Source: Bdellovibrionota bacterium
GTDB lineage: Bacteria; Bdellovibrionota_C; UBA2361; OMII01
Direction: 5' to 3'
Length of the DNA stretch: 64,000 bases
NCBI GenBank assembly: GCA_040398075.1
Contig: JBBAUR010000003.1
Location: 4,660-68,659, forward strand
The notes beneath the pieces are model-generated. The model did not search any database. It saw nothing but the letters and a program-made list of their open reading frames with translations, and was not told where the DNA came from. The first letter of the stretch is position 1. Each line of letters starts with the position of its first letter. Below are positions 9,294 to 64,000 of the stretch, piece after piece. The position numbers and the translations under genes were made by a program.

Positions 9294-9357
9294 GTTGCAC
9301 CCTTCAAACTAATAGCGGCGAAACTCTCAAAAACCTACTCGAGGAGTTACGGGTACC

Positions 9358-9921: not shown

Positions 9922-9960
9922 ACTTCACCCTCACGCACCCGGTGGACGCACGACCATTCT

Positions 9961-10650: not shown

Positions 10651-10779
10651 GGTACCACGCCCTTGGGGCCCAGTATCGCTCGCATATTCCGAATGGGAAA
10701 CCTCCTAATGAGCCGGCATCGTTAGGTGCTCGGGTAGACCAAAGAAGGATTCTGGCTAGTACGCCCCGTCCGTGCGCTC

Positions 10780-34219: not shown

Positions 34220-34245
34220 CACGTTGAAGGCAGCTCTCATCCACC

Positions 34246-35508: not shown

Positions 35509-35510
35509 GA

Positions 35511-35954
35511 ATGACAGGAGACGTAGCCCATAAGTATCGCAGCAACCTGAGTATTCTAGTGGCAGACGACCATTCCTTGACTCGGTCCATGGTCAAAGCC
35601 ATTTTGAGAGGCGTCGGCTTCGAACATATTACCCAGGCTGAAGATGGTCTCCAAGCGGTGCAGCAGATAGCAACCGGCACTATAGATGTAGTTATCTGCG
35701 ACTGGAATATGCCAAAGGCGACCGGTCTCGAGGTTCTACGCACCATTCGCTCCGATGCGCGCTTTCAGGAGCTACCTTTCTTGATGCTGACTGCCGAGGC
35801 GTATCGAGAAAACATCATCGCTGCATCTCACGCGGGTGTCAGCACGTATGTCATCAAGCCCTTCACAGCAGATGTCTTACTGAGCAAGCTCGAAGAGGTT
35901 TTGAAACCGTTATCTCGCTCTGCGAACTCGATTCAAAAGCCTACTCGTCGATGA
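35511..35954 (+). CDS. CheY-like single-domain response regulator
   Basis: 'ILVADDHSLTRSMVK', 'VICDWNMP' and 'LTAEA...YVIKPF' (receiver-domain Asp/Thr/Lys positions). Confidence 0.8.
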   Translation: MTGDVAHKYRSNLSILVADDHSLTRSMVKAILRGVGFEHITQAEDGLQAVQQIATGTIDVVICDWNMPKATGLEVLRTIRSDARFQELPFLMLTAEAYRENIIAASHAGVSTYVIKPFTADVLLSKLEEVLKPLSRSANSIQKPTRR

Positions 35955-36000: not shown

Positions 36001-37179
36001 TTAGCCTACCTTCTTCGAGAAGAGATAGTACAACTCTCCCTCCCCATGTACGTGATTCGCACGCTCTCTTGCCCGATCTCCCGTGCCCATGAAGACATCG
36101 ACTCTTCCTGGGCCACGAATTGCGCTACCCGAATCAAGATTGAGGACGAAGCGACTCGAGCGCACTAATTGGATCTTTCCCTTTTTATCCGACCGAGGTA
36201 GTGCGGTCCGAATTATACTTACTGCTCCAGGAGGCAACCGCCCCTGATCAATCGCTATCGACCGTTCCTCCACAACAGGTAGCCCGAGGCTCCCAATAGG
36301 CGAAGAGCTCTCCTGTTCCTTGAAAAATACGAAGCGGTTGTTCTGTGACAAGAGTCGGTCTAACTCGTCTGGACGTTTCTGGAAAAACTGCGGCAGCTTA
36401 CTCCATGCCACCTTCTTTTCTCGTAGATACTCCACAGGAATCCCTTTGAATGGGTGGTCTGTCGCTCCTGCAAAACCGATAGCTCGCTTGGAACCATCGG
36501 GGAATTCGAGTATCGCACTTCCCTGTACCTGAATCATGAAGGCTTCGAAACGAGACCTCAACCATACCAATTCAGATCCGTGAAGAAGTGTGTCTTGATT
36601 ACCAAGTCCGTCGAATCCCTCCAATTTGACACGAGTAGGGTGTGGCTTTGACCACGACTCCAACCCCGCTGGGCGCTGGAAGAGCGGATAACGATACACC
36701 TTGGTTCGTACGCGACTCGCCTGATACACCGGCCTGAAATACCCCGTGAAGAACACGCTCCCACGACCGTCAGAACCCACGGAGCGATACAGATCGAAGG
36801 AGTTTCGAATACTCTGCACGAGCTGTCTGTGCGAGGTGCTCGAGCGCAGAAGATCTGCAAATCTGCTCAAACTCCGGTCGAGTGTCTCCGCATTGATCCC
36901 CTTGTCTCCGAATGTCTCTAATTTGATACGCGCAGCTTCAGTTTTGAGATACTCGCGTGTTTGCTGGATAGAGGTAAGAAGATTTTCACGATGAGCGAAC
37001 AGGAAAGGGTCTACCACCAAATGATCGCCGACCTCATCGAAAGGAACCTGCTCTAAGGCAGTCTCTCTGTCTTGTGCCAAAGAGAGCACTGGTGATTGCA
37101 GAAAGACCCATACCGCCATGAGTAACCAGCTGAGTGTCCAACAACTAGCTTGTTTATCGTAGTGCCGAGGATACCGCAT
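36001..37179 (-). CDS. mltA: Membrane-bound lytic murein transglycosylase A (MltA)
   Basis: 'FFTGYFRPVYQASRVRT', 'FAGATDHPF', and a 3D domain at the C-terminus, as in MltA. Confidence 0.8.
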   Translation of the reverse strand: MRYPRHYDKQASCWTLSWLLMAVWVFLQSPVLSLAQDRETALEQVPFDEVGDHLVVDPFLFAHRENLLTSIQQTREYLKTEAARIKLETFGDKGINAETLDRSLSRFADLLRSSTSHRQLVQSIRNSFDLYRSVGSDGRGSVFFTGYFRPVYQASRVRTKVYRYPLFQRPAGLESWSKPHPTRVKLEGFDGLGNQDTLLHGSELVWLRSRFEAFMIQVQGSAILEFPDGSKRAIGFAGATDHPFKGIPVEYLREKKVAWSKLPQFFQKRPDELDRLLSQNNRFVFFKEQESSSPIGSLGLPVVEERSIAIDQGRLPPGAVSIIRTALPRSDKKGKIQLVRSSRFVLNLDSGSAIRGPGRVDVFMGTGDRARERANHVHGEGELYYLFSKKVG

Positions 37180-38980: not shown

Positions 38981-39396
38981 TTATACCGTCAGGTAGATCA
39001 GAAATGTGCAGGTTTAGTGAACCCTTAGCCTATCCTCTTCGGCCGTTCGGGAAAAGAGCCTGGAGTGACGTGCGGTTAAGACGGGCTCAAAATAGGTACA
39101 ATAGGGGGTAGAATCGGCTTTCATCCCTCTGTTCATGTAGCTACAATCCCAGTCTACCTCGCCCTGTTCCTACCTCGTGTCAGGCACTCTGAGATGGGGG
39201 CACTAGGTCGCTAGTCGAAACCGGCCCCCGCTTGGTGGTAGACTTTACGCTGCTCTTTCTCAATAGATTAAGTCTTGCGTCACAGGCGCTCGACGGACTT
39301 CTACCGACACGCGCACCATCATCATGCGGCACAGCACAGGCTGTTCGGCCTGATGATGGCAGAGAGATCAAAAGGTTTTACTGGCTTCGACAAAGC

Positions 39397-39446
39397 GCAA
39401 GCATCGCCTACGCGGGCCCCTATAAGCTCTTGTAGGCGATGCTTGC
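39397..39446. promoter_or_regulatory. 15-bp perfect palindromic half-sites (gcaagcatcgcctac-N20-gtaggcgatgcttgc) upstream of spoVG-like; third half-site at 39476..39485
   Basis: Exact inverted repeat, plus an extra 'aagcatcgcc' copy 25 bp before the start codon. Operator-like. Confidence 0.35.
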
Positions 39447-39511
39447 TTGACTCGTGTCAGGCCTTCCATTTTAGGAAGCATCGCCGTTCCACACCTGGAG
39501 GTGAGTACAGC

Positions 39512-39904
39512 ATGAGAATAACCGAGATAAGGATGGCTCTAGCCGACCCTAACGAAGAAAAAGGTGGGCCGCTGGCGTATTGTTCTGTGACCTTTGATGA
39601 TGCTCTCGTCGTCCACGACATCAAAATCATCAATACTCCGAGAGGGCCAATGATTGCGATGCCGTCTCGTAAGATGCAGGGTCGCTGCTCCAAATGTTCT
39701 ACCAAGAACCATCTGCGAGCACGTTTCTGCAATCAGTGCGGGCAGGAACTACGATTGATAAGCACGGAGGCGGATGGGCAGGGGTCTCCCCTGCTGTACG
39801 CCGATGTCGTCCATCCTGTAACGGTGGAGACGCGTGCGTTCATATCTTCAGAGATCCTCAAGAAATACGAGGAGACCAAAGCTAATCTCACTCGGCCGCG
39901 GTGA
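39512..39904 (+). CDS. spoVG: SpoVG-family protein with an inserted CxxC-X12-CxxC zinc-ribbon
   Basis: 'MRITEIRMAL...VVHDIKIINTPRGPMIAMPSRK' aligns to the SpoVG N-terminal core. 'CSKCSTKNHLRARFCNQCGQ' is inserted before the conserved C-terminal 'VHPVTVETRAFISSEIL'. RBS GGAGGTGAG-N7-ATG. The long ORF-track extension from 39275 is rejected. Confidence 0.7.
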   Translation: MRITEIRMALADPNEEKGGPLAYCSVTFDDALVVHDIKIINTPRGPMIAMPSRKMQGRCSKCSTKNHLRARFCNQCGQELRLISTEADGQGSPLLYADVVHPVTVETRAFISSEILKKYEETKANLTRPR

Positions 39905-48295: not shown

Positions 48296-49555
48296 CTATG
48301 CGGACTCAGCATGCTGGTATACTACCAGGGGCTTCTCGCCTTTTACGATCGTATCCTCAGAGACGATCACTTCTTTGATATCAGGCTCAGAGGGGACGTC
48401 GTACATCGCCTCGAGCATCACAGCCTCAAGGATAGCTCTAAGCCCTCGAGCACCGGCTTTTCTTTCGATCGCTTGCTTAGCCACAGCAGAGAGTGCCCCT
48501 TCGGTGAATCTGAGCTGCACATTTTCCATGTCGAAGAGTTTCTTGTACTGCTTGGTCAGGGCATTCTTCGGCTCAACGAGGATCTTAACCAATGCCCCTT
48601 CATCGAGATCGTCGAGCACTGCTATCATGGGGAGTCGCCCGATGAACTCAGGTATGAGGCCAAACTTCAGAAGGTCCTCAGGCTGAACCAGACTCAGGAG
48701 CGATCGCTTCTCATCTGGTTTGGGCAACTTCGATCCCCTCTGATGAGCGCCGAACCCGAGCTTCTTCTCTCCAACCCGCCGGCGGATGATATCCTCCAAG
48801 CCCACAAAGGCCCCGCCACATATGAAGAGGATGTTGCTCGTATCGACTTGCAGAAATTCCTGCTGGGGATGCTTGCGACCTCCTTTGGGTGGTACGCTAG
48901 CAACCGTTCCCTCGAGCATCTTGAGCAACGCCTGCTGTACTCCCTCTCCCGAAACATCTCGGGTTATCGATGGGTTCTCGGCCTTTCTCGAGATCTTGTC
49001 GATCTCGTCAATGTAGACGATACCCCGTTGGGCTTTCTCGACATCATAGTCAGCGTTCTGCAAAAGATTGAGGATGATGTTTTCGACATCCTCCCCGACG
49101 TAGCCAGCCTCAGTGAGCGTCGTCGCATCAGTTATCGTAAACGGAACCTGCAAAATCCGCGCGAGAGTCTGCGCTAGCAACGTCTTTCCGGTACCAGTCG
49201 GTCCGATCAAAAGGATGTTAGATTTGGCGATTTCGACATCACCCGCCGTAGTTTTGGCCTCCAGACGCTTGTAGTGGTTGTGGACGGCTACTGAAAGCAC
49301 TTTCTTCGCCATCTCCTGTCCCACCACGTACTGGTCCAGGTAACTTTTGATATCTCTCGGCTTGGGCACCCGAGATTGGGTAGCCGTTACGGACTCTGTG
49401 TCTACCTCTTCCGATATTATGTCATTGCAAAGGTCGATACACTCATCGCAGATATAGACGGAGGGCCCTGCTATCAGCTTCCTAACCTCGTCTTGCGAGC
49501 GATTACAGAACGAGCACACCAACGAGTGTCGATTCTTGTCACCGGACTTGCTCAC
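48296..49555 (-). CDS. clpX: ClpX (paralog 2, canonical tig-clpP-clpX-lon context)
   Basis: Zn-finger '[11 protein letters not shown]...CDEC', '[11 protein letters not shown]' and '[10 protein letters not shown]'. Confidence 0.95.
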
Positions 49556-51673: not shown

Positions 51674-52178
51674 GCTTTCTCCGCTGGTTAGTATAGACTG
51701 CCAACCCCGCGAGTCCCCTGGGCAAGCGAGGCAAACCCCTTCCCTGCTGCGAAAGCGGATCTTGGGTTGATCTTCGATTTTCCCTCACAGGGAAAAATCC
51801 TCGACGTATCGCATTAGTCTGCCGTCCCTTGTGCCCTTTAGAAGGCCGAAGGCCCACCTTAAACCTTTGAGACAACAGTGCTTATTGCAAGGCAGCGCTT
51901 CATTATATATGCTCTGAGCGGTTTTATAAAGTCGAGCCGTGCGGAAAACTTGGTGAAATGTTACCTCGTTCAAAGCGCCCTGAGGTTTTTGAGTTCAAAG
52001 ACAAATATATCGACTAACCAATTGAAGACACCAAGTAAATCCGGGGTGGTGCACACGCTGAATTTGCGCTGATGCACCTCGCGGGCGCCTGTGGAACCCA
52101 CGAGCGGCAGGGTGCTGAAGCAGGTAGCGCCAGGGCAGGCTGCAGGGTAGATTCTTTTGGTTTACGTTGTTTTCCCAC

Positions 52179-52260
52179 GCGGGGGTGGTGGAATTGGCAG
52201 ACACGCCAGACTTAGGATCTGGTGCCGAAAGGTTTGGGGGTTCAAGTCCCCCCTCCCGCA
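52179..52260 (+). tRNA. tRNA-Leu (anticodon TAG), no encoded CCA
   Basis: 'GCGGGGGTGGTGGAATTGGCAGAC...CCAGACTTAGGATCTGG...TGGGGGTTCAAGTCCCCCCTCCCGCA' has a long variable arm and a Leu-type D-loop. Confidence 0.85.
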
Positions 52261-52265
52261 CTCTT

Positions 52266-53252
52266 ATGCTCCCGAGACGGGCTCTCCTCGCTGGCCTCCT
52301 CTATTCTGCTTGCCACATTCTGTGGGGTTGCTCTCTCAAGCCCTCCCAACCCCGGCCTTTACGCGATTGGTGCGATACCGGCTCTCTCACACCTCGGCAG
52401 CTGCCAGATTTTGTTGAAACGCTCTACACTGAGTTTCCCTCGATGAACGATTCTCGGGGCATCACTGCAACCACTACATATTCCTCTTCCGAATACTCCT
52501 CCAGCTCTCACATCGCAAATAGTCCGGATGGCTACCGCGTCGAGATCTCACTCGCACTTCCGAAGACCACGAAGGCCCTGGTTTTATTCACGTCGAACGG
52601 GGACCGCCTCGAAAGCGAGCCCTCGTCCATCCCGGAGGTAGTGCTCTTCCTCAGGAACGGGATCGGAGTTGCTGTAGCACATACGAGAGCCGCTGGAGTT
52701 TCCAGCAAAGGAGATGCCTCCCAAACGCACGCCGTGCAGGACCTCATAGCAGCCGCTCGTACCCTGCAAGGACTCGGCTACGCATCCCCCAGAAACCTCT
52801 TTATCAGGGCGGCTGGTAGTGGCGGGTGGACCGCTGCATCTGCGGCGATCGCGCGACCGGAACTCTTTCGAGGACTCATCCTGGAATCACCGGTGCTCGA
52901 TCTGGAGAATGTAGTGGCCGATCCAACCAGCTCTCTTTATCATCGCTACCTCGAGGCGTGGGGCGCATCCAGTGCGCGCTTGAGAGAACTTTCGCCAATG
53001 CAAGAGACTACAGATTTTCTGCCCCTGGATATTATGCTGATTGCATCCCTGACAGATCGGAGTCCTCATGCCCTTGGCAATTTCGAATGGTTACGGCGCA
53101 CAGCATGTAGGCATCCAGAACTTCGCTCGGTGCTCGCATTCACATCAGTCAAGTCTGCTGTTCCCGAAAGGGAGTTGTCCGCTACGGCGGGGCGCGGAAT
53201 ACTACCACAAGAGGTCTCGTTTGTACTCACGACGGTCCGGCGGCCACTTTAG
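52266..53252 (+). CDS. Secreted protein, possible alpha/beta-hydrolase (S9-like) C-terminal domain
   Basis: Start MLPRRALLAG (a hydrophobic signal), placed after the tRNA. The ORF-track start at 52167 overlaps the tRNA and is rejected. 'RAAGSGGWTAAS' is nucleophile-elbow-like but not a canonical GxSxG. Confidence 0.4.
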   Translation: MLPRRALLAGLLYSACHILWGCSLKPSQPRPLRDWCDTGSLTPRQLPDFVETLYTEFPSMNDSRGITATTTYSSSEYSSSSHIANSPDGYRVEISLALPKTTKALVLFTSNGDRLESEPSSIPEVVLFLRNGIGVAVAHTRAAGVSSKGDASQTHAVQDLIAAARTLQGLGYASPRNLFIRAAGSGGWTAASAAIARPELFRGLILESPVLDLENVVADPTSSLYHRYLEAWGASSARLRELSPMQETTDFLPLDIMLIASLTDRSPHALGNFEWLRRTACRHPELRSVLAFTSVKSAVPERELSATAGRGILPQEVSFVLTTVRRPL

Positions 53253-53452: not shown

Positions 53453-54016
53453 TCAAGGTTCGAAGCGTTCAGCTAGAAGATCCTCGATACCAGAGACATC
53501 AGTGCCGATATAGGTTACCACTCCCCGAGGATCGATGAGTACTGCCATCGGCACGAGCTCTCCGAAAAACTTCTGGTATGCCTCGTCAAAGATATCGTTC
53601 CCCGAGAAGATGTGAACTATGCTCTCGAGCTGCTGGCTAGAGATGCGACTTTTCAACGTTTCGAAATCTTCATTTCGATCCACGCTCACCGCAAAAAACC
53701 GTACGTTTGTCCGACGACGATAGGCTCGCGCCAAATCCTCGAAATCGGCGATAGCGCTCTTCGAATATCTGCACCAGGTGGCCCAGAACAACACCGCCAC
53801 ATACCGTCCTCGTTCAGCGCTGAGGGTTGTTTCCGACCCGTCGAGCATCATGAGTCTAGCGTCTGGAGCAGGTCGTCCAATCAGACTCGCAGCTTTTTCC
53901 GGAACAGAGGAACATGCTGCAACTTCGAGCAGCAAGCACACAAGCGTGCATCTTAAAAAGGATTGCACTCTGTTCATACTGTGGAACAGTAGAAGGCCGC
54001 GCACAAATGGTCTCAC
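53453..54016 (-). CDS. Thioredoxin-fold lipoprotein (TlpA/ResA-like, CxxS monothiol)
   Basis: 'AVLFWATWCRYSKSA' is a WCxxS motif and the lipobox-like 'LLEVAAC' follows the alternative start MNRVQ at 53977. An ATGA overlap with the kinase-like gene stop supports the 54016 start. Confidence 0.65.
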   Translation of the reverse strand: MRPFVRGLLLFHSMNRVQSFLRCTLVCLLLEVAACSSVPEKAASLIGRPAPDARLMMLDGSETTLSAERGRYVAVLFWATWCRYSKSAIADFEDLARAYRRRTNVRFFAVSVDRNEDFETLKSRISSQQLESIVHIFSGNDIFDEAYQKFFGELVPMAVLIDPRGVVTYIGTDVSGIEDLLAERFEP

Positions 54017-56400
54017 CGATTGACTCGCTCTCTTATAGTACTGATATGTTTTTCGTATGCTGCTCGCACTACCGGATCAGTTTCTACTGCGTACGAATCT
54101 GCTAATATTTTGAGTATGCCTACGTCGTTTGCGGAGCTCAAAGCTTCGACTACAACTGCGCGGACCAGCGGATCCGACTGTCCGACGAGCTCCAGCAGCT
54201 GTGTGCGATCAATCAGGGAATTGTATCTTTTTATGACCTCCCGCACGGCCCGAGATGAAGGCCCCTTCAAAACAACTCGAACAAGGTCTCTGCTTTTAGG
54301 TAAGCCATTTAATCCGTCGAACGCACCACTGAAAACACTATCAGGTAGCACATTTTCCAGGGCTAGAGCCGCTACTATACGCCCTACGAGCGCTCTATCA
54401 GCGTAGTACGTTGAACGCACATAATCATATAGACCTGAGATACCGGGGGCCAGAAGCGGCTTGGCTGCCAGCGCATCGAAGGCCCGTGCCCCGAGTTCGG
54501 GATCTTTGCTTATGACGACGAGCGCCCACAAAACCTTCTCGGCATCCGAATCATACCAGCCGGCAAAACTCACTACCTCCGCCTTGGCGGCTCTTCCCAT
54601 CGCACATGTAACGAGGCTTACCTGCACGCGAGCCGGAATACTTGCTTTTCTAGTTAGAATTTCCAGGAAGAGCTTCGCCTCTGTAGGTACAATCTCGCGA
54701 GCCAGCGCCCGCTCCGAGATCCTCTTGACTCCCGGGAATTGCCGCTTCGCTAACTCCGCAAGTAACCAAAGAACATCCCTATCGTGGAGCGATGAGGGCT
54801 CTACCAATATATCTTCGATGTAGAGCGTCGATACCTCGGGAATCACAAGCATCAGGGCACCTACCGAGCGATCACTCACAGCGGAGGGATCCTCCCGAAG
54901 TGAAGCCGCCGCGCCTGAAACAAATACAGGCCGAAAAGCATCCAGTTGCTTCAGATCAAGCGCGAGGGCCGCTGCAAATCCGATGCTTGCTCTCGGATCT
55001 TCCGCTCTGAGCGCCTCCAACAGCTCGATTCGCGTGACAGTGGGCAGCGCTGGGTCGAGTAGGCGCAGAAACGTGCCCGACTTAGTACCGCGTTGTGGCG
55101 CTGACGACTCACTTTTACCCCATGCCCGAACATAATCGGACGCACGGACTAGTCCACTTCGACGAGCGCGCGTGAGGAGACTATCCCATACCTTGAGCGC
55201 GGTCTGATCGGAGTCCGATTCTTTGAACATGCGAACGAGGATGTCGTGAGCAAGAGGATCTCCCGACATTACCAGTTGATCGATGTATTCATTCCTTGCA
55301 CCCTGTGTCTCCTCTACGAGCAAGGCTTCGCTAACGTCGCCGGGGCGCATCTCAAGAGCTCCCAAATTATCCTTGCTGGGGAAAACCGATGTGCCTTCGA
55401 AGCCCATCCACAGACCAACGCCTATCAGAAAGATCACGAGAGCTACCTTTAGTAGCCTTACCATACTCGGCCCCGAGGGTTCGACGACAGGCTGCTTCTC
55501 CTTGGCGCTACCCGGTAGTGCATGGAGCGAAATCGCCACAGCTGAGGCAGCTGTGCGTGCTGGCGGCGAACTGACTTGCGTCTCGACTTTTGCCGGCAAG
55601 CTGTCTCGAACCACGGCATTCTCTTTCCATTGGGTTATCGCCTGCAGCAGGTCAGCAGCAGTCTGTGGCCTCTCACCTGGAGAGGGACTGAGGGCCTTCT
55701 CGAGCACATCATCAATCCATTCAGGTGCCGACCCGTTGAGCGCATGTGGCTTATGCGTCAATTTTTCGGACTCATTGAATCGAGGATACTCACCAGTGAA
55801 GAGTCGATACCCTATGACGCCAAGCGCAAAGATATCGGTTGCACTAGTGCACTCGTTCGCTTTACGTTGCTCAGGTGCAACGCACTTCATCCAGTCGCCT
55901 GCATCATCGGTAGCTGTATGATTGGTTTGCTCGAATATTCCCCACCCAGCGAATATCTTCATGGCACCGAAGCGATCTAGAAGAAACGACTGCAGGCAGA
56001 GGTCGCCACAAGCGATGTTATGAGCATGTAGTTTTGCGACAAGGCGAACGACTGCCACATAACGTCGCTCTACTTCGACAAGCTCTGGTGACTCTTCGCC
56101 CAAGACAGCCCCATCGAGTAAAGGTAAAACCACAAAAGCTGTGCCAGCACCATCAACTCCGAATGAAGAGATCTCGGTGATTTGAGAGAGTTGTCCAGCT
56201 CGAGAGGCAAAAACAGGGACTTGATCCGGCTTAAGTGGAGCCTTGAATATAACGAGGCCTACACTTTGTCTTCGAAACTTGTCGAGAGCCTTAAATACAT
56301 CGACGATTCGGGTAGAGGCTATCTTGTTTTCGACTACGAAGTAGTCCGAAACAATCCCGGATAATCTAGACATCACTGGAGAGGTAGAAGCCATAATCAA
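54013..56400 (-). CDS. Ser/Thr protein kinase-fold protein with degenerate catalytic motifs (likely pseudokinase) and C-terminal HEAT/ARM-like repeats
   Basis: Kinase fold recognisable: 'VGLVIFKAP' (VAIK Lys), 'WMKCVAPE' (APE) and 'DIFALGVIGYRLFTG'. The catalytic loop reads 'HNIACGDLCLQSFLL' instead of HRDLKPxN, 'AGW' replaces DFG, and there is no Gly-rich loop. The C-terminal roughly 450 aa are helical repeats. Confidence 0.7.
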   Translation of the reverse strand: MIMASTSPVMSRLSGIVSDYFVVENKIASTRIVDVFKALDKFRRQSVGLVIFKAPLKPDQVPVFASRAGQLSQITEISSFGVDGAGTAFVVLPLLDGAVLGEESPELVEVERRYVAVVRLVAKLHAHNIACGDLCLQSFLLDRFGAMKIFAGWGIFEQTNHTATDDAGDWMKCVAPEQRKANECTSATDIFALGVIGYRLFTGEYPRFNESEKLTHKPHALNGSAPEWIDDVLEKALSPSPGERPQTAADLLQAITQWKENAVVRDSLPAKVETQVSSPPARTAASAVAISLHALPGSAKEKQPVVEPSGPSMVRLLKVALVIFLIGVGLWMGFEGTSVFPSKDNLGALEMRPGDVSEALLVEETQGARNEYIDQLVMSGDPLAHDILVRMFKESDSDQTALKVWDSLLTRARRSGLVRASDYVRAWGKSESSAPQRGTKSGTFLRLLDPALPTVTRIELLEALRAEDPRASIGFAAALALDLKQLDAFRPVFVSGAAASLREDPSAVSDRSVGALMLVIPEVSTLYIEDILVEPSSLHDRDVLWLLAELAKRQFPGVKRISERALAREIVPTEAKLFLEILTRKASIPARVQVSLVTCAMGRAAKAEVVSFAGWYDSDAEKVLWALVVISKDPELGARAFDALAAKPLLAPGISGLYDYVRSTYYADRALVGRIVAALALENVLPDSVFSGAFDGLNGLPKSRDLVRVVLKGPSSRAVREVIKRYNSLIDRTQLLELVGQSDPLVRAVVVEALSSANDVGILKILADSYAVETDPVVRAAYEKHISTIRERVNR

Positions 56401-56422
56401 TATTCACATTGCTTATTCAGCG

Positions 56423-58618
56423 TTATCGTGAAGCCAACTCCCAAGTTCCAATCTGCTCCACCGGTATCACAGGATCGAGCTCCTCATAGCTTACGACAAA
56501 TAGTGGGCGAGCCAATCCCCGTGCCAATGATAGCACCTTATCTCGAATTTCACTGCTGCACAGTATCGCAACCGGCACCGTGCCAAATTCGAACACCGAC
56601 TTCAGAACAGATTGAAGTCCTAAAGACAGTGCTTCAAAGGTACTACCCTCGATAGCAAGCGGGAGTCCAGATTCCGAAATTTCGGCCTGCTGCAGAGCCT
56701 GTTCAACGTCAGCAGATAGACCGAGAACCCGCACGCCTCTGGAGGCTCCTAGATAGCGGCGAAGGATCTGACGCTTTCGATGCGTACGGATAAACTGCAC
56801 TGCTCGTGTAACATCGATGTTACTGTCTTGTCCCAAGGAAATCCCGAAACTCGCGCAGTAGGAGGCGACGCTTTCGAGAATCGCCCGGAAGTCTCTGATA
56901 CTTACGCCTTGTCGAACTAGCTCGTGAAGTATCTCTGTAAGAGCTGGTACAGATACGAACTCCTTGCCGAACCCCTCTGCAATCAATCCAGGATGCTTCT
57001 TTTCAACCTGACGCAGCAGAGAGTGAACATCCGTCACCGAAAGAAACTCCTCGGGATGTCGAAGACAAAAACTGCCTACGCGAAGTCCGACATATTCAAA
57101 GAAATCAAAGCTCCGAATCGAGGCCAATTCCAACATCTTGCGCACACCCGGGGTATTACGACACCAGAACACCCTGTTACCGGATATGGGATGGTCCTCC
57201 TCCAGTAAGACATGGAGACCGAGTACTGTAGCCTGAAAACTCGCAATCTCTACGAGTAGCGCGTCGGTCAGAACCGGCCCAGCAACCATCTCCACCCCTG
57301 AACTCGTCACGCGATACGATGAAGAGGGCAGAAGCTCATCCGAGACTACGTGAATATCGGGTAATCTTACCCCCACGTCGGCAAAGAAATCGGCCTGGAA
57401 GGATCGCCACCACGACATCCATTTACCAGGATTCGAACGGTAAGAGCGGTAGAGAACTCCGCTATCGAGCATGAGGGAAAGGCCTGAGTCCTCGAGCTCT
57501 CCTTCTCTCAAGTTAACTGACGACAACGATGGCAAGCCGTCCAAACGACCATACATCCCAGAAGCTAACTCCATGCTCGAAGAATGTCCGCGTCGTCTGT
57601 GAGCTACTATTCCAATCGCCCACGCCAACAGTGCTACTACTACGAAGGGGAAGGCGGGCACTCCTGGTAGCAGCGCAAAAATCATTAGGACGGCCCCGGT
57701 GATGAGCAAAGTAACTGGCTGAGAAAAAAGTTGTTCCCGTAGATCGGAGCTTAACGTCGAAACGTCCGCAGAGGATACACGAGTGACTATGATACCGGCG
57801 CAGATTGAGGTCAGCAGGCCGGGTATCTGCGTTACTAGCCCATCCCCCACGGTGAGCACCGTGTACGACTGCACTGCATCGACCAGAGGCATTCCTCCAG
57901 ACAATCCCATGTACACACCACCTATGATGTTGGTGAGGATGATAAAGAACCCTGCCACTGCATCACCCTGAACAAACTTCATTGCGCCGTCCATGGAGCC
58001 GTACAACTGTGAGTCTCGCCTCAACTCGTCTCTTTTCCGACGAGCTTCATCAGCCGAGATCACCCCCGAACGAGCATCGTTGTCGATCGCAGTCTGTTTC
58101 CCGGGCAGAGAGTCCAATGCAAATCGAGCTGCTACCTCCGATACGCGACTTGCTCCCTTCGATATGACGATAAAATTCACAATCGTCACAATCGTAAAAA
58201 TGATGATTCCCACCACCACTTCGCCACGAATGAGGAAGGTTCCAAAAGATTCAATTACTCGTCCTGCGTCTCCCTGGCTCAAGATCAGTCGAGATGAAGC
58301 CACATTGAGACCCAATCGGAACAGGGTGCTCAGAAGAAGAATGGTGGGAAAGGTGTACAACGCCGCAGAGTTCGGAAGATACAAACCCACCAGGAGCAGC
58401 AAGATCGAGAAGGATATGTTGATGACTAGCAGTACGTCTAGGAGCATCGTCGGAAGGGGTACGATGAGCATCGCCGTGATAGCGACGACCAGAGCAACCA
58501 AAACGACATCGGCGTACCGAAGTCTTCCGTTCATTACGATAGCCTCAACCTTTATCCCCATCTGAACTCGGCCACAGCGATAGCTCCTCACCTCGACGCG
58601 GCGACCATGTAACGCCAC
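56423..58618 (-). CDS. flhA: FHIPEP-family export gate protein (FlhA/SctV homolog), full length
   Basis: TM domain with 'FRLGLNVASSRLIL', 'FALDSLPGKQTAIDNDARSGVI' and 'YGSMDGAMKFVQGDAVAG', plus the cytoplasmic domain hallmark 'VSIRDFRAILESVASY'. 731 aa. Lies 6 bp after tadC, 23 bp before the kinase-like gene. Confidence 0.85.
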   Translation of the reverse strand: MALHGRRVEVRSYRCGRVQMGIKVEAIVMNGRLRYADVVLVALVVAITAMLIVPLPTMLLDVLLVINISFSILLLLVGLYLPNSAALYTFPTILLLSTLFRLGLNVASSRLILSQGDAGRVIESFGTFLIRGEVVVGIIIFTIVTIVNFIVISKGASRVSEVAARFALDSLPGKQTAIDNDARSGVISADEARRKRDELRRDSQLYGSMDGAMKFVQGDAVAGFFIILTNIIGGVYMGLSGGMPLVDAVQSYTVLTVGDGLVTQIPGLLTSICAGIIVTRVSSADVSTLSSDLREQLFSQPVTLLITGAVLMIFALLPGVPAFPFVVVALLAWAIGIVAHRRRGHSSSMELASGMYGRLDGLPSLSSVNLREGELEDSGLSLMLDSGVLYRSYRSNPGKWMSWWRSFQADFFADVGVRLPDIHVVSDELLPSSSYRVTSSGVEMVAGPVLTDALLVEIASFQATVLGLHVLLEEDHPISGNRVFWCRNTPGVRKMLELASIRSFDFFEYVGLRVGSFCLRHPEEFLSVTDVHSLLRQVEKKHPGLIAEGFGKEFVSVPALTEILHELVRQGVSIRDFRAILESVASYCASFGISLGQDSNIDVTRAVQFIRTHRKRQILRRYLGASRGVRVLGLSADVEQALQQAEISESGLPLAIEGSTFEALSLGLQSVLKSVFEFGTVPVAILCSSEIRDKVLSLARGLARPLFVVSYEELDPVIPVEQIGTWELASR

Positions 58619-58624
58619 AGTAAA

Positions 58625-59545
58625 TCACAACGCTGTGAGAATCTGTAGAAGGAATCCGATCAGTAAAATAACGAGGTAGCCGAAAAATACCAAAGCAACC
58701 GGCGCCGTCGCTTCGAGCTCCAATTTCTTTATTTTAGCCTCTATCTTCGTTTCTCGTTGCGCCGAAACAGCATCCGCGAGCTCTTGAAGTTGCTTCGATA
58801 CCTCACCACCGAACTTCGCTACCTGCGCAAGCGCCATAAAAGCATGTTTGAGTTCAACCTGTCCGGAGAGCTTACCCACCTCTGTCAGGGCCTCTTCGAG
58901 ACCTACGCCTGACTTGATATGATACTGAGCATATCGAACTAATTCCGTAACGGCGTTATGACTATCCCTCTCATCTGCCATCTGAACCACACGCGACAAA
59001 CACGGACCTATGTCGAGCGAGCTACTGACTCCGATTGAAATTTGCTCGATGACGAGCGGAAGATAGAAGAGGATGTCTTCGGCTCGTTGTTTCATGCGCC
59101 TCTCGAGAATTCTGAATGGGATGTAGAACCCTGCGAGCAGGCCGATGAGTGCAGCAAGCATCCCGAATTGCCACCCTGATGCGGACCAACCAAAGCCAGC
59201 AAGAACGACAGAGCCGACCGCCGGCAAGAGGATCCGCAGCCTTTGGAAGTCCTTCCGTTGTCTCTCGGTGAAAAGCCCCGCTCTGAACATCTTCTCCTGC
59301 AGCGTAGGCTCAGAGCTTTTTTTGAGTGACTTACGCGTCGCTGCTTTGACCTTCTCGAGCTGCTCTCCAGTCTCGTCATTCTCGATCGACTCACGTAGGT
59401 CAGCATTCGGAGAAACTACAACTCGTGAGCCCATCAAAGAGCGATAGTCGACTTTGGGCGTCGTAAAGAGCATCCAGACCAGCAAGCCAAGGGAGAGCGC
59501 GCCACCAATTCCGGCCACAAGCGGTATTAATGAGGACAGTTCCAT
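58625..59545 (-). CDS. tadC: Tad/Flp pilus assembly inner-membrane platform protein TadC-like (T2SSF domain)
   Basis: 306 aa with N-terminal and central TM helices and a T2SSF-type cytoplasmic domain. Follows tadB with a 4-bp gap. Confidence 0.75.
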   Translation of the reverse strand: MELSSLIPLVAGIGGALSLGLLVWMLFTTPKVDYRSLMGSRVVVSPNADLRESIENDETGEQLEKVKAATRKSLKKSSEPTLQEKMFRAGLFTERQRKDFQRLRILLPAVGSVVLAGFGWSASGWQFGMLAALIGLLAGFYIPFRILERRMKQRAEDILFYLPLVIEQISIGVSSSLDIGPCLSRVVQMADERDSHNAVTELVRYAQYHIKSGVGLEEALTEVGKLSGQVELKHAFMALAQVAKFGGEVSKQLQELADAVSAQRETKIEAKIKKLELEATAPVALVFFGYLVILLIGFLLQILTAL

Positions 59546-59549
59546 CGTA

Positions 59550-60548
59550 TTACACCTTGATCTTGGTCACTTGCCGTACCCAGAACAATCCGAGAATGAT
59601 TCCAATCAAGCCAGCTTGGCAAACAGGACGCCCTATCGGGTGTGTCCACGGGACAGTTACGCACGCAGGCCAGCTGATATACAAGTAACCTTCGAGAGCG
59701 GCTAAAATGGCGAGAATGAACCATATGGAACCTCGCTGGAGCCCGACTGCTGCCACCGCAGACTTTCGGAAGTACTGTCGCTTGCGAACCTGCCTCGAAA
59801 GGCGGTCAAGTGTGTCCGAGAGATTTCCGCCGACACGCCGACTCAGGATGAGCGCTTGTACGAACAACTCTATCTCCGGATGGTAAATATCTTCGCCGAA
59901 TGACCCCACGGAGCGCTCTTCTGGGACACCGAGTTTCAAGCGTTCGAGCATAAGCTGAACCTCGGACCTAACCAGCGATGTTTCCTCGAGCCCCTCTGCT
60001 GCTGACTGTAGGCCCTGAATTGGGTTGAGTCCGGTCTTCAAAAGACCCGCAAGTGACAGCAAAAATTGCGGGTAATCAGCATCGAACTGGTTGAATCGAC
60101 GATCCATCTTCATGGTCAGGAGCCAGTTCATGAAGAGGGGTCCAGTCAATAGCGACATAAACTGCAACACGACATCAAAGTACTGTCGTGTGATCAGAAA
60201 TGCGCCGAGGCTTAGAAGAATTTGGGCTAGGCTGAATGCGAAGGGGGGGATGTGTGTGAGCTGCGAGTACTTCAACCTTTTGCGCAAAGTGAGAACGGTA
60301 TCAGCAACTTTTTCAACGGCTTCGTTCTCTTCGAGCGCGTTGACGAATCGCTTCCCCGCAGCCAAATTCGCCGTCTCCGTGCTGACATCCGCGGAGGCTC
60401 GCTGAGCCGAAGAGATCGAGCGCATCTGTTGCCTCCATGAGCTATTTGCTAAGAAGGTACCAACAATTTGGCCGGAGAAAAGAAACGCGACTGCCGCCCC
60501 GACCACCAAGACCGCTCCGATAATCAGAACCAAAGAGAGTGTACTCAT
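59550..60548 (-). CDS. tadB: Tad/Flp pilus assembly platform protein TadB-like (T2SSF domain)
   Basis: 332 aa with T2SSF-family topology. Directly downstream of cpaF. A C7 run lies in the CDS. Confidence 0.75.
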   Translation of the reverse strand: MSTLSLVLIIGAVLVVGAAVAFLFSGQIVGTFLANSSWRQQMRSISSAQRASADVSTETANLAAGKRFVNALEENEAVEKVADTVLTLRKRLKYSQLTHIPPFAFSLAQILLSLGAFLITRQYFDVVLQFMSLLTGPLFMNWLLTMKMDRRFNQFDADYPQFLLSLAGLLKTGLNPIQGLQSAAEGLEETSLVRSEVQLMLERLKLGVPEERSVGSFGEDIYHPEIELFVQALILSRRVGGNLSDTLDRLSRQVRKRQYFRKSAVAAVGLQRGSIWFILAILAALEGYLYISWPACVTVPWTHPIGRPVCQAGLIGIILGLFWVRQVTKIKV

Positions 60549-60559
60549 ACCCTTTCCTG

Positions 60560-62077
60560 TCAGCCCTTGGTCGAATTTGACACGCCAGCCTGGGCGGGCC
60601 CACTGATTGAGATCTCTTGTGGTGAATCCCCGAGATGAATTCCTGATGCTTTCAGCTGTTCATCGAAGTTACTCGACCACGAATCGACCCTCCATACCGG
60701 TCGATTTCCCTGCTTGATCTGAGTGAACATGGGACGTACCTGTATGACTCCCTCAACGAAATGACCAACCTCTATAATCTCTGCTACTCGTGGCTTACCG
60801 GTTGCTTTCTCGCGCACTAACCAAACTACCGAATCGACCGCAAGGGCAATTTGTTGACGAATGATGTCAATTGCTACCGACTTCTGCGCACGTCCTAGGA
60901 GGCTCTCCAAGCGGACCAAGGTCTCACGCGCGTTTCGAGCATGTACGGTCGACATCCCTACATGGCCGGTCTGCGCACTTTCGAGAAACGCCTCGGCTGC
61001 AAACGGCGTGCGCATCTCTCCCAACAGTACACGGGTTGGGGTCATACGAAGAGTGGTTTTGATGTGCTCCTGCAGGGTCACCTCACCGACTCCCTCAGCA
61101 TTCGGAGGTCTCGATACCAACGACCGAAAGTAGGGGTGGGTAAAGTTAAGCTCAGGGGTATCCTCTACGGCTACAATTGATTCGTCAGGTCCGAACTGCG
61201 TGGCGAGACACTTAATTAATGTCGTTTTTCCTGTTCCAGTCTCGCCTGCCACCATCATCGTCGCAAGTCCGCTACGTACCAGGCACGCGAGGTAATTCAC
61301 TATCAGCGGTGGTGCCACCTGATACGTGATGAGATTTTCCAAGCTGACCTCTGACATACGCGGCACTCGGATACAGAGAAGAGGACCACGCTGACCGCAT
61401 ACACTCTCGTGAACTGCACACAATCGCGTACCGTTTGGAAAGGAGGCATCAACTGTATGCTGCTGTGTCGTGAGTGACTTCCCTAACCGCAGAAGCATTC
61501 GGTCGATGAAGGTCACGTAAGATTGATGATTGGGCCAGTGTAGCCCCGTTGTTTCGCTTACTTTTCCTCTTTGGAGAACAACAGTCTTGTAGTCGTAGAC
61601 GTGAATATCGGTCACCTCACGATTGTCGATGAGCGGCTGAAGCACACCCCATCCCATGAGGTCCTTTTGGAGATGGATGATGACGTTGGCCCGCTCTATG
61701 TCGTCGAGTGCATCCCCTCGTTTTTTGAGAACACGATCGACTGCAGCAGCGATTGCAGTTTCTGCCATCGCGGAGTTGTTCATCTGCTGCTGCATATTGT
61801 AATCGCTACCGAGCTCTCGTCGTGCATCGCGCATGACCGCTGAAGCAAGTGCGGACATCTCGGAGCCACGACTCGCCGAAGCGCCAGAACCCCCAGAGCC
61901 GAATGTATTCGTAGAGGTCGCAGTCGAGGATGATTGCGGAGTCACTGAGCCAGGCAGCGCAGTGCTGGATTGGCCTAACGCTGGCCGCGTTATATCAAGT
62001 TGCGTACGATGGTGAGTCGTGCGCGTCGAGAACATCCCAAGGAGTCCATCTTTTTCATCCTTGCTTGAACCCGCCAT
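60560..62077 (-). CDS. cpaF: Tad/Flp pilus assembly ATPase CpaF/TadA (with S/T-rich N-terminal extension)
   Basis: Walker A 'VAGETGTGKTTLIKCL', 'AVEDTPEL', His box 'TVHARNARET' and Asp box. The N-terminal 90 aa are low-complexity Ser/Thr/Gly-rich. Confidence 0.9.
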   Translation of the reverse strand: MAGSSKDEKDGLLGMFSTRTTHHRTQLDITRPALGQSSTALPGSVTPQSSSTATSTNTFGSGGSGASASRGSEMSALASAVMRDARRELGSDYNMQQQMNNSAMAETAIAAAVDRVLKKRGDALDDIERANVIIHLQKDLMGWGVLQPLIDNREVTDIHVYDYKTVVLQRGKVSETTGLHWPNHQSYVTFIDRMLLRLGKSLTTQQHTVDASFPNGTRLCAVHESVCGQRGPLLCIRVPRMSEVSLENLITYQVAPPLIVNYLACLVRSGLATMMVAGETGTGKTTLIKCLATQFGPDESIVAVEDTPELNFTHPYFRSLVSRPPNAEGVGEVTLQEHIKTTLRMTPTRVLLGEMRTPFAAEAFLESAQTGHVGMSTVHARNARETLVRLESLLGRAQKSVAIDIIRQQIALAVDSVVWLVREKATGKPRVAEIIEVGHFVEGVIQVRPMFTQIKQGNRPVWRVDSWSSNFDEQLKASGIHLGDSPQEISISGPAQAGVSNSTKG

Positions 62078-62304
62078 ATCCGAAATCTCCCATCCATACG
62101 CAGCCGACCGAACTAGTTTCGATGTGCTGCCGCCATAGTCGATTTATGCACAACCTGCACTCCAGGACGTTTGAGATGTCCCTTCCGAGCGACCTAAGGA
62201 GGCCACCTGCTTCCGTAGATGTTGCCTCTCCGAAGGGATCTATCGGATGAGTTTCGTGATTGTATTAGACTATTTCGAACTAATCGAGACTCTGGCGATG
62301 CAGA

Positions 62305-63183
62305 CTACCTATTCGCCGCGTCCTCAGGCACGAGCTTGCCATTCATTATTAAGAACACCTTCCCTTCGACAACTACCCGCCCTTCTGAAGTTATAGGGGC
62401 TGGACCCTTTGGGCCCTCTACGGACAGGAGACTGTCGATTAACACCGTTGTATTAGCCTCGCTCTCGATAGTATCCTCGTCACCTCGCAGCACCAGGCTC
62501 AATACTCCCGAACTTGATGCCAACTGCAACTTTGCCGCCTCATCAATTGAAACCATGATTGTTACTGTCGATGCTGGAGCGCTCTTCTCTCCCGAAGCTT
62601 GACTAGTGGTGCTCCGACCAGCCGACAGAACCTTTGCATTCTGGATGATAACCGATAGCGCTGGTTGCGCATTTACGGCTGATGCGAGCACAACATCGAC
62701 CTTGGCACCCGGCCGTGCCCACCCTTCTACACTGGTGGTGTTGTCCACTGATAATGCAACCGCTCTGTAGCCATCCGGGATATTTGCTTGAATCTGATTG
62801 ACCGGCTGTTTTGAGGTAACGTACTCAGCAACTATAGGCTGCGCCGCGGGCATGTAGGAAGCTGCATACACGCCACGGATCTCCTCGAATGTCTTCAGAG
62901 TGTTCGGTGCAAGAGAATTTGCGAGTCTGGACTCCTTTCGGAACATCGAAGGGTCGAGGGCAGTGCCTACCTCTATCTTCTCGATCGGTACTAACACGTC
63001 TACCAACTCGGAAGCTATAGAGGGCTTGGGCGCTTCTACCGAAGGCTGTGTTGGATTGATTCCGAGAACCGCATAAACCGACAAGGTCAGGATACACAGC
63101 ACCACTATCGCACCCAGCACAAGCGGCGCCGGTGCCGAGCGAGACCTAGAAAGCTGCTTGGATCCTGAAAGGCCTCTGACCAT
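62305..63183 (-). CDS. cpaB: Flp pilus assembly protein CpaB/RcpC-like (SAF domain)
   Basis: N-terminal TM anchor followed by periplasmic SAF/beta-rich domains typical of CpaB. Confidence 0.7.
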   Translation of the reverse strand: MVRGLSGSKQLSRSRSAPAPLVLGAIVVLCILTLSVYAVLGINPTQPSVEAPKPSIASELVDVLVPIEKIEVGTALDPSMFRKESRLANSLAPNTLKTFEEIRGVYAASYMPAAQPIVAEYVTSKQPVNQIQANIPDGYRAVALSVDNTTSVEGWARPGAKVDVVLASAVNAQPALSVIIQNAKVLSAGRSTTSQASGEKSAPASTVTIMVSIDEAAKLQLASSSGVLSLVLRGDEDTIESEANTTVLIDSLLSVEGPKGPAPITSEGRVVVEGKVFLIMNGKLVPEDAANR

Positions 63184-63280
63184 CGTCGTGCTTGCGGGAT
63201 CGACGATCCCTTATCCTCTCGGGTTAAAGTGTGGGAAGAGCGTGTATTGCGCGGCTTCGTAGCTTGCGCCCATTTTCCGA

Positions 63281-63457
63281 CTAGCCGCCGCCCAAGCGGT
63301 TACTGACAGCAGAGAACTGCTGAGAGACGGTGTTACCGAGAGCCCTAACCGCCACTATGGCTACAATCGCTATCAACGCCACTAAAAGGGCGTACTCGAC
63401 GAGCGACGCACCCTTCTCTTCCAGCGACTCAACTTGTTTTTTACCGGTAGCTAGCAT
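63281..63457 (-). CDS. flp: Flp-family pilin (second tandem copy; below ORF-track length cut-off)
   Basis: Hand-translated as 'MLATGKKQVESLEEKGASLVEYALLVALIAIVAIVAVRALGNTVSQQFSAVSNRLGGG'. It carries the Flp 'GASLVEYAL' motif and is near-identical to the flp at 63554..63739. Confidence 0.7.
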   Translation of the reverse strand: MLATGKKQVESLEEKGASLVEYALLVALIAIVAIVAVRALGNTVSQQFSAVSNRLGGG

Positions 63458-63506
63458 CTGTGGGCGACCTTTGTGGTGGTAAAGCTAACGTATGTCAGAT
63501 TAACTT

Positions 63507-63542
63507 GGCGTGAGAGATCACCCAAAGGAGCCCTCTCACGCC
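63507..63542 (-). other. Inter-pilin hairpin (10-bp perfect stem ggcgtgagag/ctctcacgcc, 16-nt loop) between the tandem flp genes
   Basis: Sits 13 nt after the flp1 stop. No U-tract, so it is a candidate partial terminator or mRNA-stabilising hairpin. Confidence 0.4.
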
Positions 63543-63553
63543 GTAACTAAATA

Positions 63554-63739
63554 TTAGCCGCCGCCCAGCACGTTGCTGAGTGCAGAGAATTGCTGCGAAA
63601 CAGTGTTACCCAGCAATCTGATAGCAGCTATAGCCACTACTGCGATGAGGGCAACCAGAAGGGCATACTCTACGAGCGAAGCACCTTTCTCGGGCGACTC
63701 TTGCTCGTTGTCGAGTTTAACATCTATTTCCTCGTTCAT
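63554..63739 (-). CDS. flp: Flp-family pilin (first copy)
   Basis: '...EKGASLVEYALLVALIAVVAIAAIRLLGNTVSQQF' has the Flp G/XXXXEY processing motif. RBS AAGGAG-N6-ATG. Confidence 0.8.
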   Translation of the reverse strand: MNEEIDVKLDNEQESPEKGASLVEYALLVALIAVVAIAAIRLLGNTVSQQFSALSNVLGGG

Positions 63740-63791
63740 TTAGGCTCCTTTACACATTGATTAACCAGGATGAGTAGCCTCACTGCTATTA

Positions 63792-63800
63792 GGGGGGGGG
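63792..63800. repeat. G9/C9 homopolymeric tract in the flp promoter region
   Basis: Nine consecutive G, about 53 bp upstream of the flp start, immediately 5' of a TAATAG -10-like hexamer on the coding strand. Confidence 0.6.
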
Positions 63801-64000
63801 CGACCCCACAGACCCTCATTCGCCGAAGCTATCATCAAATTTATCGGAACATACCGCCCTGGACTAAACGGATATTTCTAAAAGACGCTTATTAATCCAA
63901 CTGCGATTCGTCAATTAGAGGACCGCTTCTCCTCGGTGGACGACCAAAGCAGCTGCGAACACTAGTGTAGTGAACATAAACTGCCCCGTATCTCTTGTTA

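Follow-up and report, generated by a model that had tools for sequence, protein, structure and literature searches.

We analysed a window of 64,000 nucleotides (the whole stretch of DNA examined here) from a Bdellovibrionota bacterium of the GTDB lineage Bdellovibrionota_C; UBA2361; OMII01. It covers positions 4,660 to 68,659 of the forward strand of contig JBBAUR010000003.1, assembly GCA_040398075.1. Nine co-directional open reading frames (ORFs) were found on its minus strand at 53453-63739, using the ORF listing together with Pfam and NCBIfam scans. In this block, a Tad/Flp pilus motor is encoded together with an export-gate protein of the SctV/FlhA family (FHIPEP) and a dedicated transmembrane pseudokinase (PsK). 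These scans bear out the gene order proposed in an initial annotation made from the sequence alone: flp, flp, cpaB, cpaF, tadB, tadC, FHIPEP, a kinase-like gene and a thioredoxin-like (Trx) gene.

All the features of the block are on the minus strand. It begins with two Flp/Fap prepilins, flp-1 (63554-63739, 61 aa) and flp-2 (63281-63457, 58 aa). They match PF04964 with E values of 6.3e-9 and 1.5e-9, respectively, and both present the cleavage motif G/ASLVEY. The processing motif KG/ASLVEYALLVALIA, of the G/xxxxEY type, is kept in relatives. The third gene (62305-63183; PF16976, E 8.8e-21) encodes a CpaB/RcpC-like periplasmic protein with an N-terminal anchor, a single transmembrane (TM) helix at amino acids 21-39. 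Its score of 125 bits on TIGR03177 is above the cut-off of 71. The CpaF/TadA-like secretion ATPase (60560-62077; PF00437, T2SSE, E 1.4e-31) reaches 211 bits on TIGR03819. By this score it is a divergent member of the family, since it falls below the cut-off. Two T2SSF platform proteins follow, TadB-like (59550-60548; PF00482, E 1.1e-12) and TadC-like (58625-59545; PF00482, E 1.4e-10). The FHIPEP gene of the Tad-linked clade described below occupies 56423-58534 (PF00771, 570 bits). PsK, a bitopic protein of 795 aa (54013-56400), matches Pkinase with an E value of 4.9e-8 and HEAT_2 weakly. The last gene (53453-54016) encodes a Trx-fold, TlpA/ResA-like lipoprotein with a lipobox (AhpC-TSA, E 6e-13; Redoxin). 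An alternative start of this gene is the ATG at 53977. Prepilin peptidase (TadV/CpaA) and secretin (RcpA/CpaC) genes were called neither in the cluster nor in the loci of relatives. The missing secretin reported by the initial annotation was thus confirmed in the cluster of every relative examined. Both genes may be encoded elsewhere, by analogy with M. xanthus and B. bacteriovorus.

The short distances described earlier between these genes were recalculated. For the longest ORFs, the 4 bp between tadB and tadC, the 22 bp between FHIPEP and PsK and the 4-bp overlap of PsK with the Trx gene are arithmetically right. The 6 bp between tadC and FHIPEP also follow from the longest ORFs, but they depend on an unlikely start codon. 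The FHIPEP open frame extends to a GTG at 58618, and the ATG at 58534 gives a protein of 703 aa. The ATG is most likely the start, because GAGG lies 8 nt upstream of it, a 100%-identical NCBI-derived protein has 703 aa, and the homology to FHIPEP begins there. Therefore, the gap between tadC and FHIPEP would be about 90 bp. In the relatives, the called tadC and FHIPEP genes are 58-116 bp apart.

More than 100 clusters of FHIPEP homologues were found at 51-90% identity, almost all from metagenomes or metagenome-assembled genomes (MAGs). Their source labels are Bdellovibrionota, Oligoflexia, 'Deltaproteobacteria' and 'Pseudomonadota'. The relatives examined as short-variant loci were L001/L002, L003, L004, L083, L084, L085 and L096/L097, with 39-90% FHIPEP identity to the window (L085 90%, L001/L002 66%, L003 61%, L083 58%, L084 51%, L004 39%). 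Among them, L084 comes from assembly GCA_019694465.1, L003 from a Bdellovibrionota MAG of Lake Mendota (JBIIYC01) and L004 from JALEGQ01. The contigs of L084 and L085 end inside the cluster and show the covered part only. The order of genes in these relatives is PP2C, FHA, Ser/Thr kinase, AAA_31, Flp, CpaB, CpaF, TadB, TadC, FHIPEP, pseudokinase/HEAT and Trx. By this comparison, the whole cluster consists of 12 genes, and the first four (PP2C, FHA, Ser/Thr kinase and TadZ) are predicted to lie just outside the window, beyond the intergenic DNA upstream of flp-1 (63740-64000).

The AAA_31 gene is TadZ/CpaE-like. Wherever the contig of a relative reaches far enough, this gene is located upstream of flp, at a distance of about 300-380 bp. 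These proteins have 417-427 aa, and they were identified as TadZ by domain and position only. The Pkinase, FHA and PP2C genes precede the tadZ-like gene in L001/L096/L097, L083 and L085. Only 261 bp of the window remain upstream of flp-1, and no similarity to tadZ was found in 63701-64000. So, the lack of tadZ noted at first is probably an effect of the window edge. Upstream of PP2C, the contig of a relative carries unrelated genes only, with no type III secretion system (T3SS) gene. Downstream of the cluster are an S9 peptidase gene (not called in L001/L002) and then tig-clpP-clpX-lon. All of the short subclade, down to 39% identity, keeps the order tadC-FHIPEP-PsK, which answers the call for a synteny check in related genomes.

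In the short variant, no type III gene besides FHIPEP lies in a region of about 75 kb, which comprises about 53 kb downstream (in the window) and 10 kb upstream (in the relative L096). Profile hidden Markov models (HMMs) of SctD/J/O/Q/R/S/T/U, built from related proteins, had no match within the 64-kb window, and none of these genes was found in the short-variant loci. In agreement with the initial annotation, flhB and fliPQR are not beside FHIPEP, and the related SctR/S/T/U profiles match nothing in the window.

A different arrangement was observed in a more distant Bdellovibrionota MAG (GCA_046328905.1; L062/L087), whose FHIPEP is 35% identical to that of the window. Here the block FHA-kinase-TadZ-...-CpaB-CpaF-TadB-TadC-FHIPEP-pseudokinase runs into a T3SS core. 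Right after the pseudokinase come an SctD-like protein with two FHA domains and YscD_cpl, and a second FHA/YscD_cpl protein. They are followed by a lipoprotein of the YscJ/FliF family (SctJ), a 77-aa protein and a 166-aa coiled-coil protein. The coiled-coil protein of this long variant is FliJ/SctO-like, with a faint FliJ match in L094. Next are FliMN_C (SctQ), FliP (SctR), Bac_export_3 (SctS) and a protein of the size of SctT, which has a Bac_export_1 match in L095. After these come a short Bac_export_2 protein (SctU), a protein of about 90 aa and a TPR protein. The long variant is also present in L088, L094, L095 and L100, which makes five loci in total, and its intergenic gaps range from -4 to 48 bp.

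In the five long-variant clusters, SctD, SctJ, SctQ and SctRSTU are adjacent to FHIPEP, whereas genes for an SctN-type ATPase, a secretin, a needle or a translocon were not recognised. No fliF, fliG, rod or hook gene was found among their neighbours. The SctU homologues have only 223-261 aa (L087 11797-12582; L088 11751-12527; L095 7634-8389; L100 11436-12107). The three that were checked (L087, L088 and L095) are without the C-terminal NPTH autocleavage domain, responsible for the substrate switch.

The small protein of about 78 aa between SctJ and the FliJ-like gene (L087 7834-8067) has homologues in L088, L094, L095, L100 and L101. Its sequence, RFRALSxREQAVVAxAVLLDGxDAAEYL, appears to resemble the N-terminal helix motif of FliG. 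L101 (Logan SRR14710901, GC 36%) is a split locus. At 8248-10919, the genes for this protein, SctO, SctQ, SctR and SctS adjoin flgE, flgK and flagellin genes, and no SctV, SctD, SctJ, SctT or SctU was found within 10 kb. Therefore, the T3SS-like genes of the long-variant family can be scattered. The six contexts of SctR genes obtained are the five long variants and this low-GC (36%) split locus of another lineage.

The tadC-FHIPEP-pseudokinase junction is still present where FHIPEP identity is as low as about 30-35%, in lineages that differ in their flanking genes. The comparison with 75 other genome FHIPEP loci, which include Myxococcota, Chlamydiota and proteobacterial injectisomes (Pseudomonas, Bordetella, Vibrio and Aeromonas), gave no case (0/75) of Tad genes or the pseudokinase C-terminal domain beside FHIPEP. 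These two results bear on an explanation by mere neighbourhood. According to it, the Tad genes and FHIPEP-PsK-Trx would be independent operons in a generally syntenic region, with no functional link. The synteny of tig-clpP-clpX-lon in the short subclade fits this explanation, and so does the gap of 58-116 bp before FHIPEP. A scan for promoters and terminators gave as many matches as shuffled sequence does, and it carries no information on co-transcription either way. Nevertheless, the junction persists in the long-variant loci with entirely different outer flanks, and it is absent from the 75 other FHIPEP loci. We consider this explanation highly improbable.

We then asked what kind of FHIPEP is encoded here. 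The match to PF00771 is full-length (model positions 1-654 of 657), and the protein has seven to eight hydrophobic segments. The motif VSIRDFRAILE, pointed out in the initial annotation, is present in the ORF (56423-58618). On TIGR01399 (SctV), the protein of the window scores 558 bits against a cut-off of 692, and on TIGR01398 (FlhA) 506 against 772. For calibration, the FlhA of E. coli (950) and that of Sulfitobacter (835) were scored on TIGR01398, and the SctVs of Archangium, Chlamydiales and Pseudomonas reach 828-997 on TIGR01399. The other Tad-linked FHIPEPs (L084, L004, L062 and L094) obtain 464-597 bits on both models. The best PDB match is YscV of Yersinia (7alw) with 391 bits; full-length FlhAs give 251-321 bits.

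Neighbour-joining (NJ) trees were made with about 680 aligned columns and 200 bootstraps. They contain the 75 genome-locus SctVs, the Tad-linked proteins and eight FlhAs (E. coli, E. coli Flag-2, Ralstonia, three alphaproteobacteria, Vibrio 7amy and 12dv). FlhA, all the other SctVs, the short variant and the long variant each form a clade with 100% support, and the short and long variants join with 84.5-99% NJ bootstrap. The mean corrected distances are 1.63 from the Tad-linked proteins to FlhA, 1.48 to the other SctVs, and 1.43 between FlhA and the other SctVs. Every member of the Tad-linked clade that was examined sits between tadC and the same pseudokinase gene, and this gene context supports the common ancestry of the short and long variants independently of the trees. 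By these scores and trees, the FHIPEP of the window represents a third, long-branched lineage, an orthologue of neither flagellar FlhA nor injectisome SctV. The candidate assignment as an injectisome SctV orthologue was rejected, given the score below the TIGR01399 cut-off and the separate clade. The name SctV-like refers to the long-variant context (SctD and the SctJ lipoprotein, and neither FliF, FliG, rod nor hook) and does not imply sequence orthology.

The same data weigh on the possibility that FHIPEP is simply the flagellar flhA of the organism, located downstream of the Tad operon and perhaps co-transcribed with it. The window does carry motA (33359-34219) and motB (34246-35508), confirmed at 21 kb from FHIPEP, close to the 20 kb first given. 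With a CheY-like gene (33359-35954 for the group), they suggest a flagellated organism. Moreover, the NCBI pipeline named one homologue 'flagellar biosynthesis protein FlhA', and the charged residues critical for FlhA are all present. However, the score of 506 bits is below the cut-off of 772, which the two true FlhAs exceed (835-950). In the trees, the protein also falls outside the FlhA clade, which has 100% support and covers Proteobacteria together with the very divergent FlhA of PDB 12dv. In its sister (long) subclade, FHIPEP has SctD-like and SctJ-type lipoprotein genes as neighbours, without fliF, fliG, rod or hook genes, and flhB, flhF and fliR are not beside FHIPEP in the window. We find this alternative, already raised in the initial annotation, very unlikely, and the scores and the trees disfavour it.

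To estimate the selection pressure, we used the Nei-Gojobori dN/dS against the 90%-identical L085. The values were 0.031 for FHIPEP, 0.027 for TadC, 0.040 for TadB, 0.066 for CpaB, 0.047 for Tig and 0.13 for PsK; dS is saturated at about 2, so these ratios are approximate. They indicate strong purifying selection on FHIPEP, and purifying selection on PsK as well. In the alignment to the Salmonella/E. coli-type FlhA, the equivalents of R147, R154, D158, K203 and D208 are all kept. In FlhA, these residues make up a charged cluster that is critical for function and on which proton-driven export depends. A decaying pseudogene was considered and rejected, given the intact frame, the dN/dS of 0.03 and the conservation of the functional residues.

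The kinase-like gene proved to be a pseudokinase, as had been supposed. In the alignment with the bona fide Ser/Thr kinase of the same clusters, which is encoded upstream and keeps all four catalytic motifs, PsK and nine homologues (10/10) have lost the Gly-rich loop, the beta3 Lys, the Lys/Asn of HRDLKxxN and the Asp of DFG. The APE motif is mostly kept. PsK presents a single TM helix (aa 316-334), whose N-side carries positive residues, and a C-terminal domain of about 440 aa. An HMM of this domain matches Tad-linked loci only. A single-sequence AlphaFold model of low confidence (mean pLDDT 46), of which the secondary structure alone was used, makes the domain all-helical, with about 30 short helices. 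The protein probably consists of a cytoplasmic pseudokinase and a periplasmic HEAT-like alpha-solenoid.

The Trx lipoprotein is present in the short variant only. Its lipobox and a monothiol WCxxS are kept in five relatives (L001, L083, L084, L003 and L004), and the WCxxS stands in place of the CxxC of TlpA/ResA-type proteins. The CpaF proteins of the short and long variants have in common an N-terminal motif, LLG[LM]FSTR[TAS], in the first 20 codons (about 62018-62077 in the window). After it comes a variable S/T-rich linker, and no FHA domain was found in CpaF. This N-terminus is a plausible candidate for a docking or phosphorylation site of the kinase/FHA/PP2C triad.

Taken together, the locus is probably a reduced form of a composite Tad and T3SS-like envelope machine of uncultured Bdellovibrionota. 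The idea of a hybrid or repurposed Tad-type III apparatus, possibly for predation, had been proposed for the window. It is supported, and made more precise, by the conserved junction and by the five long-variant loci with a T3SS core. The predatory part of the idea is assumed from the phylum.

In such a machine, FHIPEP would form an inner-membrane ring and drive protein export dependent on the proton-motive force. The cargo might be effectors or pilus-associated proteins, handed to the Tad pilus or coordinated with it. In the long variant, FHIPEP would be part of a minimal basal body made of SctD/J/Q/R/S/T/U, for which no ATPase was recognised. The motor formed by CpaF, TadB, TadC and CpaB, positioned by TadZ, would assemble the Flp filament. 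Both machines could act at the same site, with the filament as the route or the trigger for delivery of the exported proteins. The FHIPEP of the short variant might use either the flagellar FliPQR/FlhB or an SctRSTU core with genes at another place. Assembly would be switched on at the contact site by the kinase/PP2C/FHA triad, PsK could serve as a membrane-spanning scaffold or sensor, and the S/T-rich N-terminus of CpaF is a plausible phospho-target. By analogy with the Kil and T3SS* systems of Myxococcus, the role might be contact-dependent attack on other cells.

Several observations weigh against the composite machine. No other T3SS core gene lies within the roughly 53 kb downstream in the window or the 10 kb upstream in L096. 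We obtained no link between an SctR/FliP gene and a short-variant genome: the SctR search and the comparison of accessions gave no shared assemblies, and one metagenome scan gave two short contigs only. The gap of about 90 bp before FHIPEP could hold a promoter. Adjacency within the short subclade alone is weak evidence, because the housekeeping tig-clpP-clpX-lon genes are syntenic there too. The trees are distance-based, their FlhA sampling is limited to Proteobacteria and one other FlhA, without Bdellovibrionota, and long-branch attraction is possible in them. So, the position of the Tad-linked clade relative to FlhA and SctV is uncertain on account of its long branch. Finally, the predatory lifestyle of the lineage is assumed from phylum membership only.

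The lack of core genes in the short variant also leads to another explanation, in which FHIPEP is a leftover. An ancestor with the long cluster would have lost its T3SS core and kept FHIPEP and PsK for a role unrelated to Tad, for example in an ion-conducting or signalling membrane complex. The adjacency would then be historical. It fits that the short and long variants are sister clades, and that no SctD/J/O/Q/R/S/T/U gene is found in the window or in the short-variant loci. A weak signal is that large clusters such as those of the window-clade FHIPEP did not appear in the SctR search. On the other hand, the tadC-FHIPEP-PsK order is kept to 39% identity with a dN/dS of 0.03, and uncoupled genes usually drift apart. 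In addition, the scattered T3SS-like genes of L101 show that the core may simply be elsewhere. We regard a leftover as unlikely.

A further reading goes beyond the composite machine and seems to us similarly doubtful. Without SctRSTU, the FHIPEP ring might have become a direct component of the Tad machine. The result would be a true chimera, in which an export gate or proton-motive engine, with PsK, TadB, TadC and CpaF, loads or energises secretion by way of a type IV filament. In a wider sense, the Tad-linked clade and the long-variant gene set might be an unrecognised, deep-branching third type III lineage, born or kept in union with the Tad pilus.

Other features of the window were observed. 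The S9 peptidase (52167-53252, plus strand) comprises the C-terminal catalytic half only, both here and in the 90% relative (327 aa), and has 629-686 aa in L083, L084 and L004. Its long ORF overlaps a tRNA-Leu (52179-52261), so the true start is later. Two full-length clpX paralogues are encoded on the minus strand at 28510-29787 and 48296-49555, with zinc finger, AAA_2 and ClpB_D2-small domains, and the second alone lies in the usual tig-clpP-clpX-lon array. Tandem PilT/PilU-like retraction ATPases (T2SSE) at 14981-16120 and 16124-17251 (minus strand) suggest a type IVa pilus besides the Tad system. A DNA/RNA non-specific endonuclease (22911-23825, plus strand; PF01223, E 4e-34) has a DRGH motif and a hydrophobic N-terminus. 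It is plausibly secreted and would suit a predatory or scavenging lifestyle. The SpoVG homologue at 39275-39904 (plus strand) has a zinc-ribbon insert within the SpoVG domain and a long basic N-terminal ORF extension. A tRNA-Ser(cga) called by ARAGORN at 36042-36133 (minus strand) lies inside the 3' end of an MltA-like ORF (36001-37179), which means an overlap or a false tRNA call.

No published description of Tad-FHIPEP clusters or fused Tad-T3SS clusters was found in the open-access papers searched. A 2026 preprint on the Tad machine of B. bacteriovorus makes no mention of T3SS, SctV or FlhA, and a 2024 paper on the comparative genomics of Bdellovibrionota mentions neither type III or other secretion systems, FlhA nor Tad/Flp. 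As judged from the papers searched, what is new here is the physical fusion of Tad-like and T3SS-like genes in a second phylum. Also new are the FHIPEP clade with a dedicated pseudokinase and its reduced form, that of the window, retaining the gate alone. This would be independent comparative-genomic evidence, from another phylum, that Tad-like and T3SS-like systems belong together, with a diagnostic tadC-FHIPEP-pseudokinase junction kept over deep divergence. The natural reductions (no ATPase, truncated SctU, FHIPEP alone) point to the parts that matter for coupling. The new clade is missed or mislabelled by the standard FlhA and SctV models. Candidates for interaction modelling and genetics are PsK, the N-terminal motif of CpaF and the lipoprotein with CxxS.

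Compared with flagellar FlhA, the FHIPEP of the window belongs to the same family and has the same charged residues and the C-terminal VxIRDxRxILE motif. However, it shows 30-33% identity, a separate clade and no flagellar neighbours. Likewise, it shares with injectisome SctV (YscV/LcrD) the full-length FHIPEP architecture and, in the long variant, the SctD/J/Q/R/S/T/U context, but the identity is 34-36%, and no needle, secretin, translocon or ATPase genes are nearby.

The pilus genes resemble the canonical Tad/Flp systems (tad of Aggregatibacter, cpa of Caulobacter) in the Flp G/xxxxEY motif, CpaB/RcpC, CpaF/TadA, TadB, TadC and, in the relatives, a TadZ/CpaE-like protein. In contrast, the cluster is without secretin (RcpA/CpaC), prepilin peptidase, TadD and TadE/F/G. 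The tadZ-like gene (in the relatives) is upstream of flp, and the PP2C/FHA/Ser/Thr kinase triad, FHIPEP, the pseudokinase and the Trx lipoprotein are added. The triad has a counterpart in the H1 type VI secretion system of P. aeruginosa, where PpkA, PppA and Fha1 form a threonine-phosphorylation switch. In both cases the cluster for secretion or for a pilus is headed by genes for a Hanks-type kinase, a PP2C and an FHA protein. Nevertheless, the machine is different here, and there is an extra kinase paralogue, catalytically dead and membrane-spanning.

The closest parallel discussed here is the Kil system with the 'needleless' T3SS* of Myxococcus (Seef 2021, PMC8460266; Herrou 2025, PMC12075869, citing Thiery 2022). 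In M. xanthus, T3SS* is recruited by Kil, and the two systems co-localise where the cell touches its prey (PMC12075869). In the model for Myxococcus, the tips of the pili are suggested as a replacement for the missing needle (PMC12075869; PMC8460266). The joint presence of Kil and T3SS* seems confined to Cystobacterineae, one myxobacterial suborder, according to a 2025 review (PMC12428579). As in Kil and T3SS*, a Tad-type motor is paired with a T3SS-like inner-membrane apparatus with no secretin or needle recognised, here in the long variant and as genes alone. FHA-domain signalling proteins are associated with both, and the lineages are predatory and formerly 'delta-proteobacterial' (here by phylum membership). 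The differences are also clear. In the window variant, all T3SS genes but FHIPEP have been lost or moved elsewhere. T3SS* has an SctN ATPase, whereas none was seen in any Tad-linked cluster. The FHIPEP of the window is a separate clade, about 36% identical to the SctV of Myxococcota. It is always followed by a clade-specific pseudokinase, and CpaF is without the FHA domain of KilF. Finally, Kil and T3SS* are encoded at separate loci in Myxococcus, whereas the Bdellovibrionota genes are contiguous.

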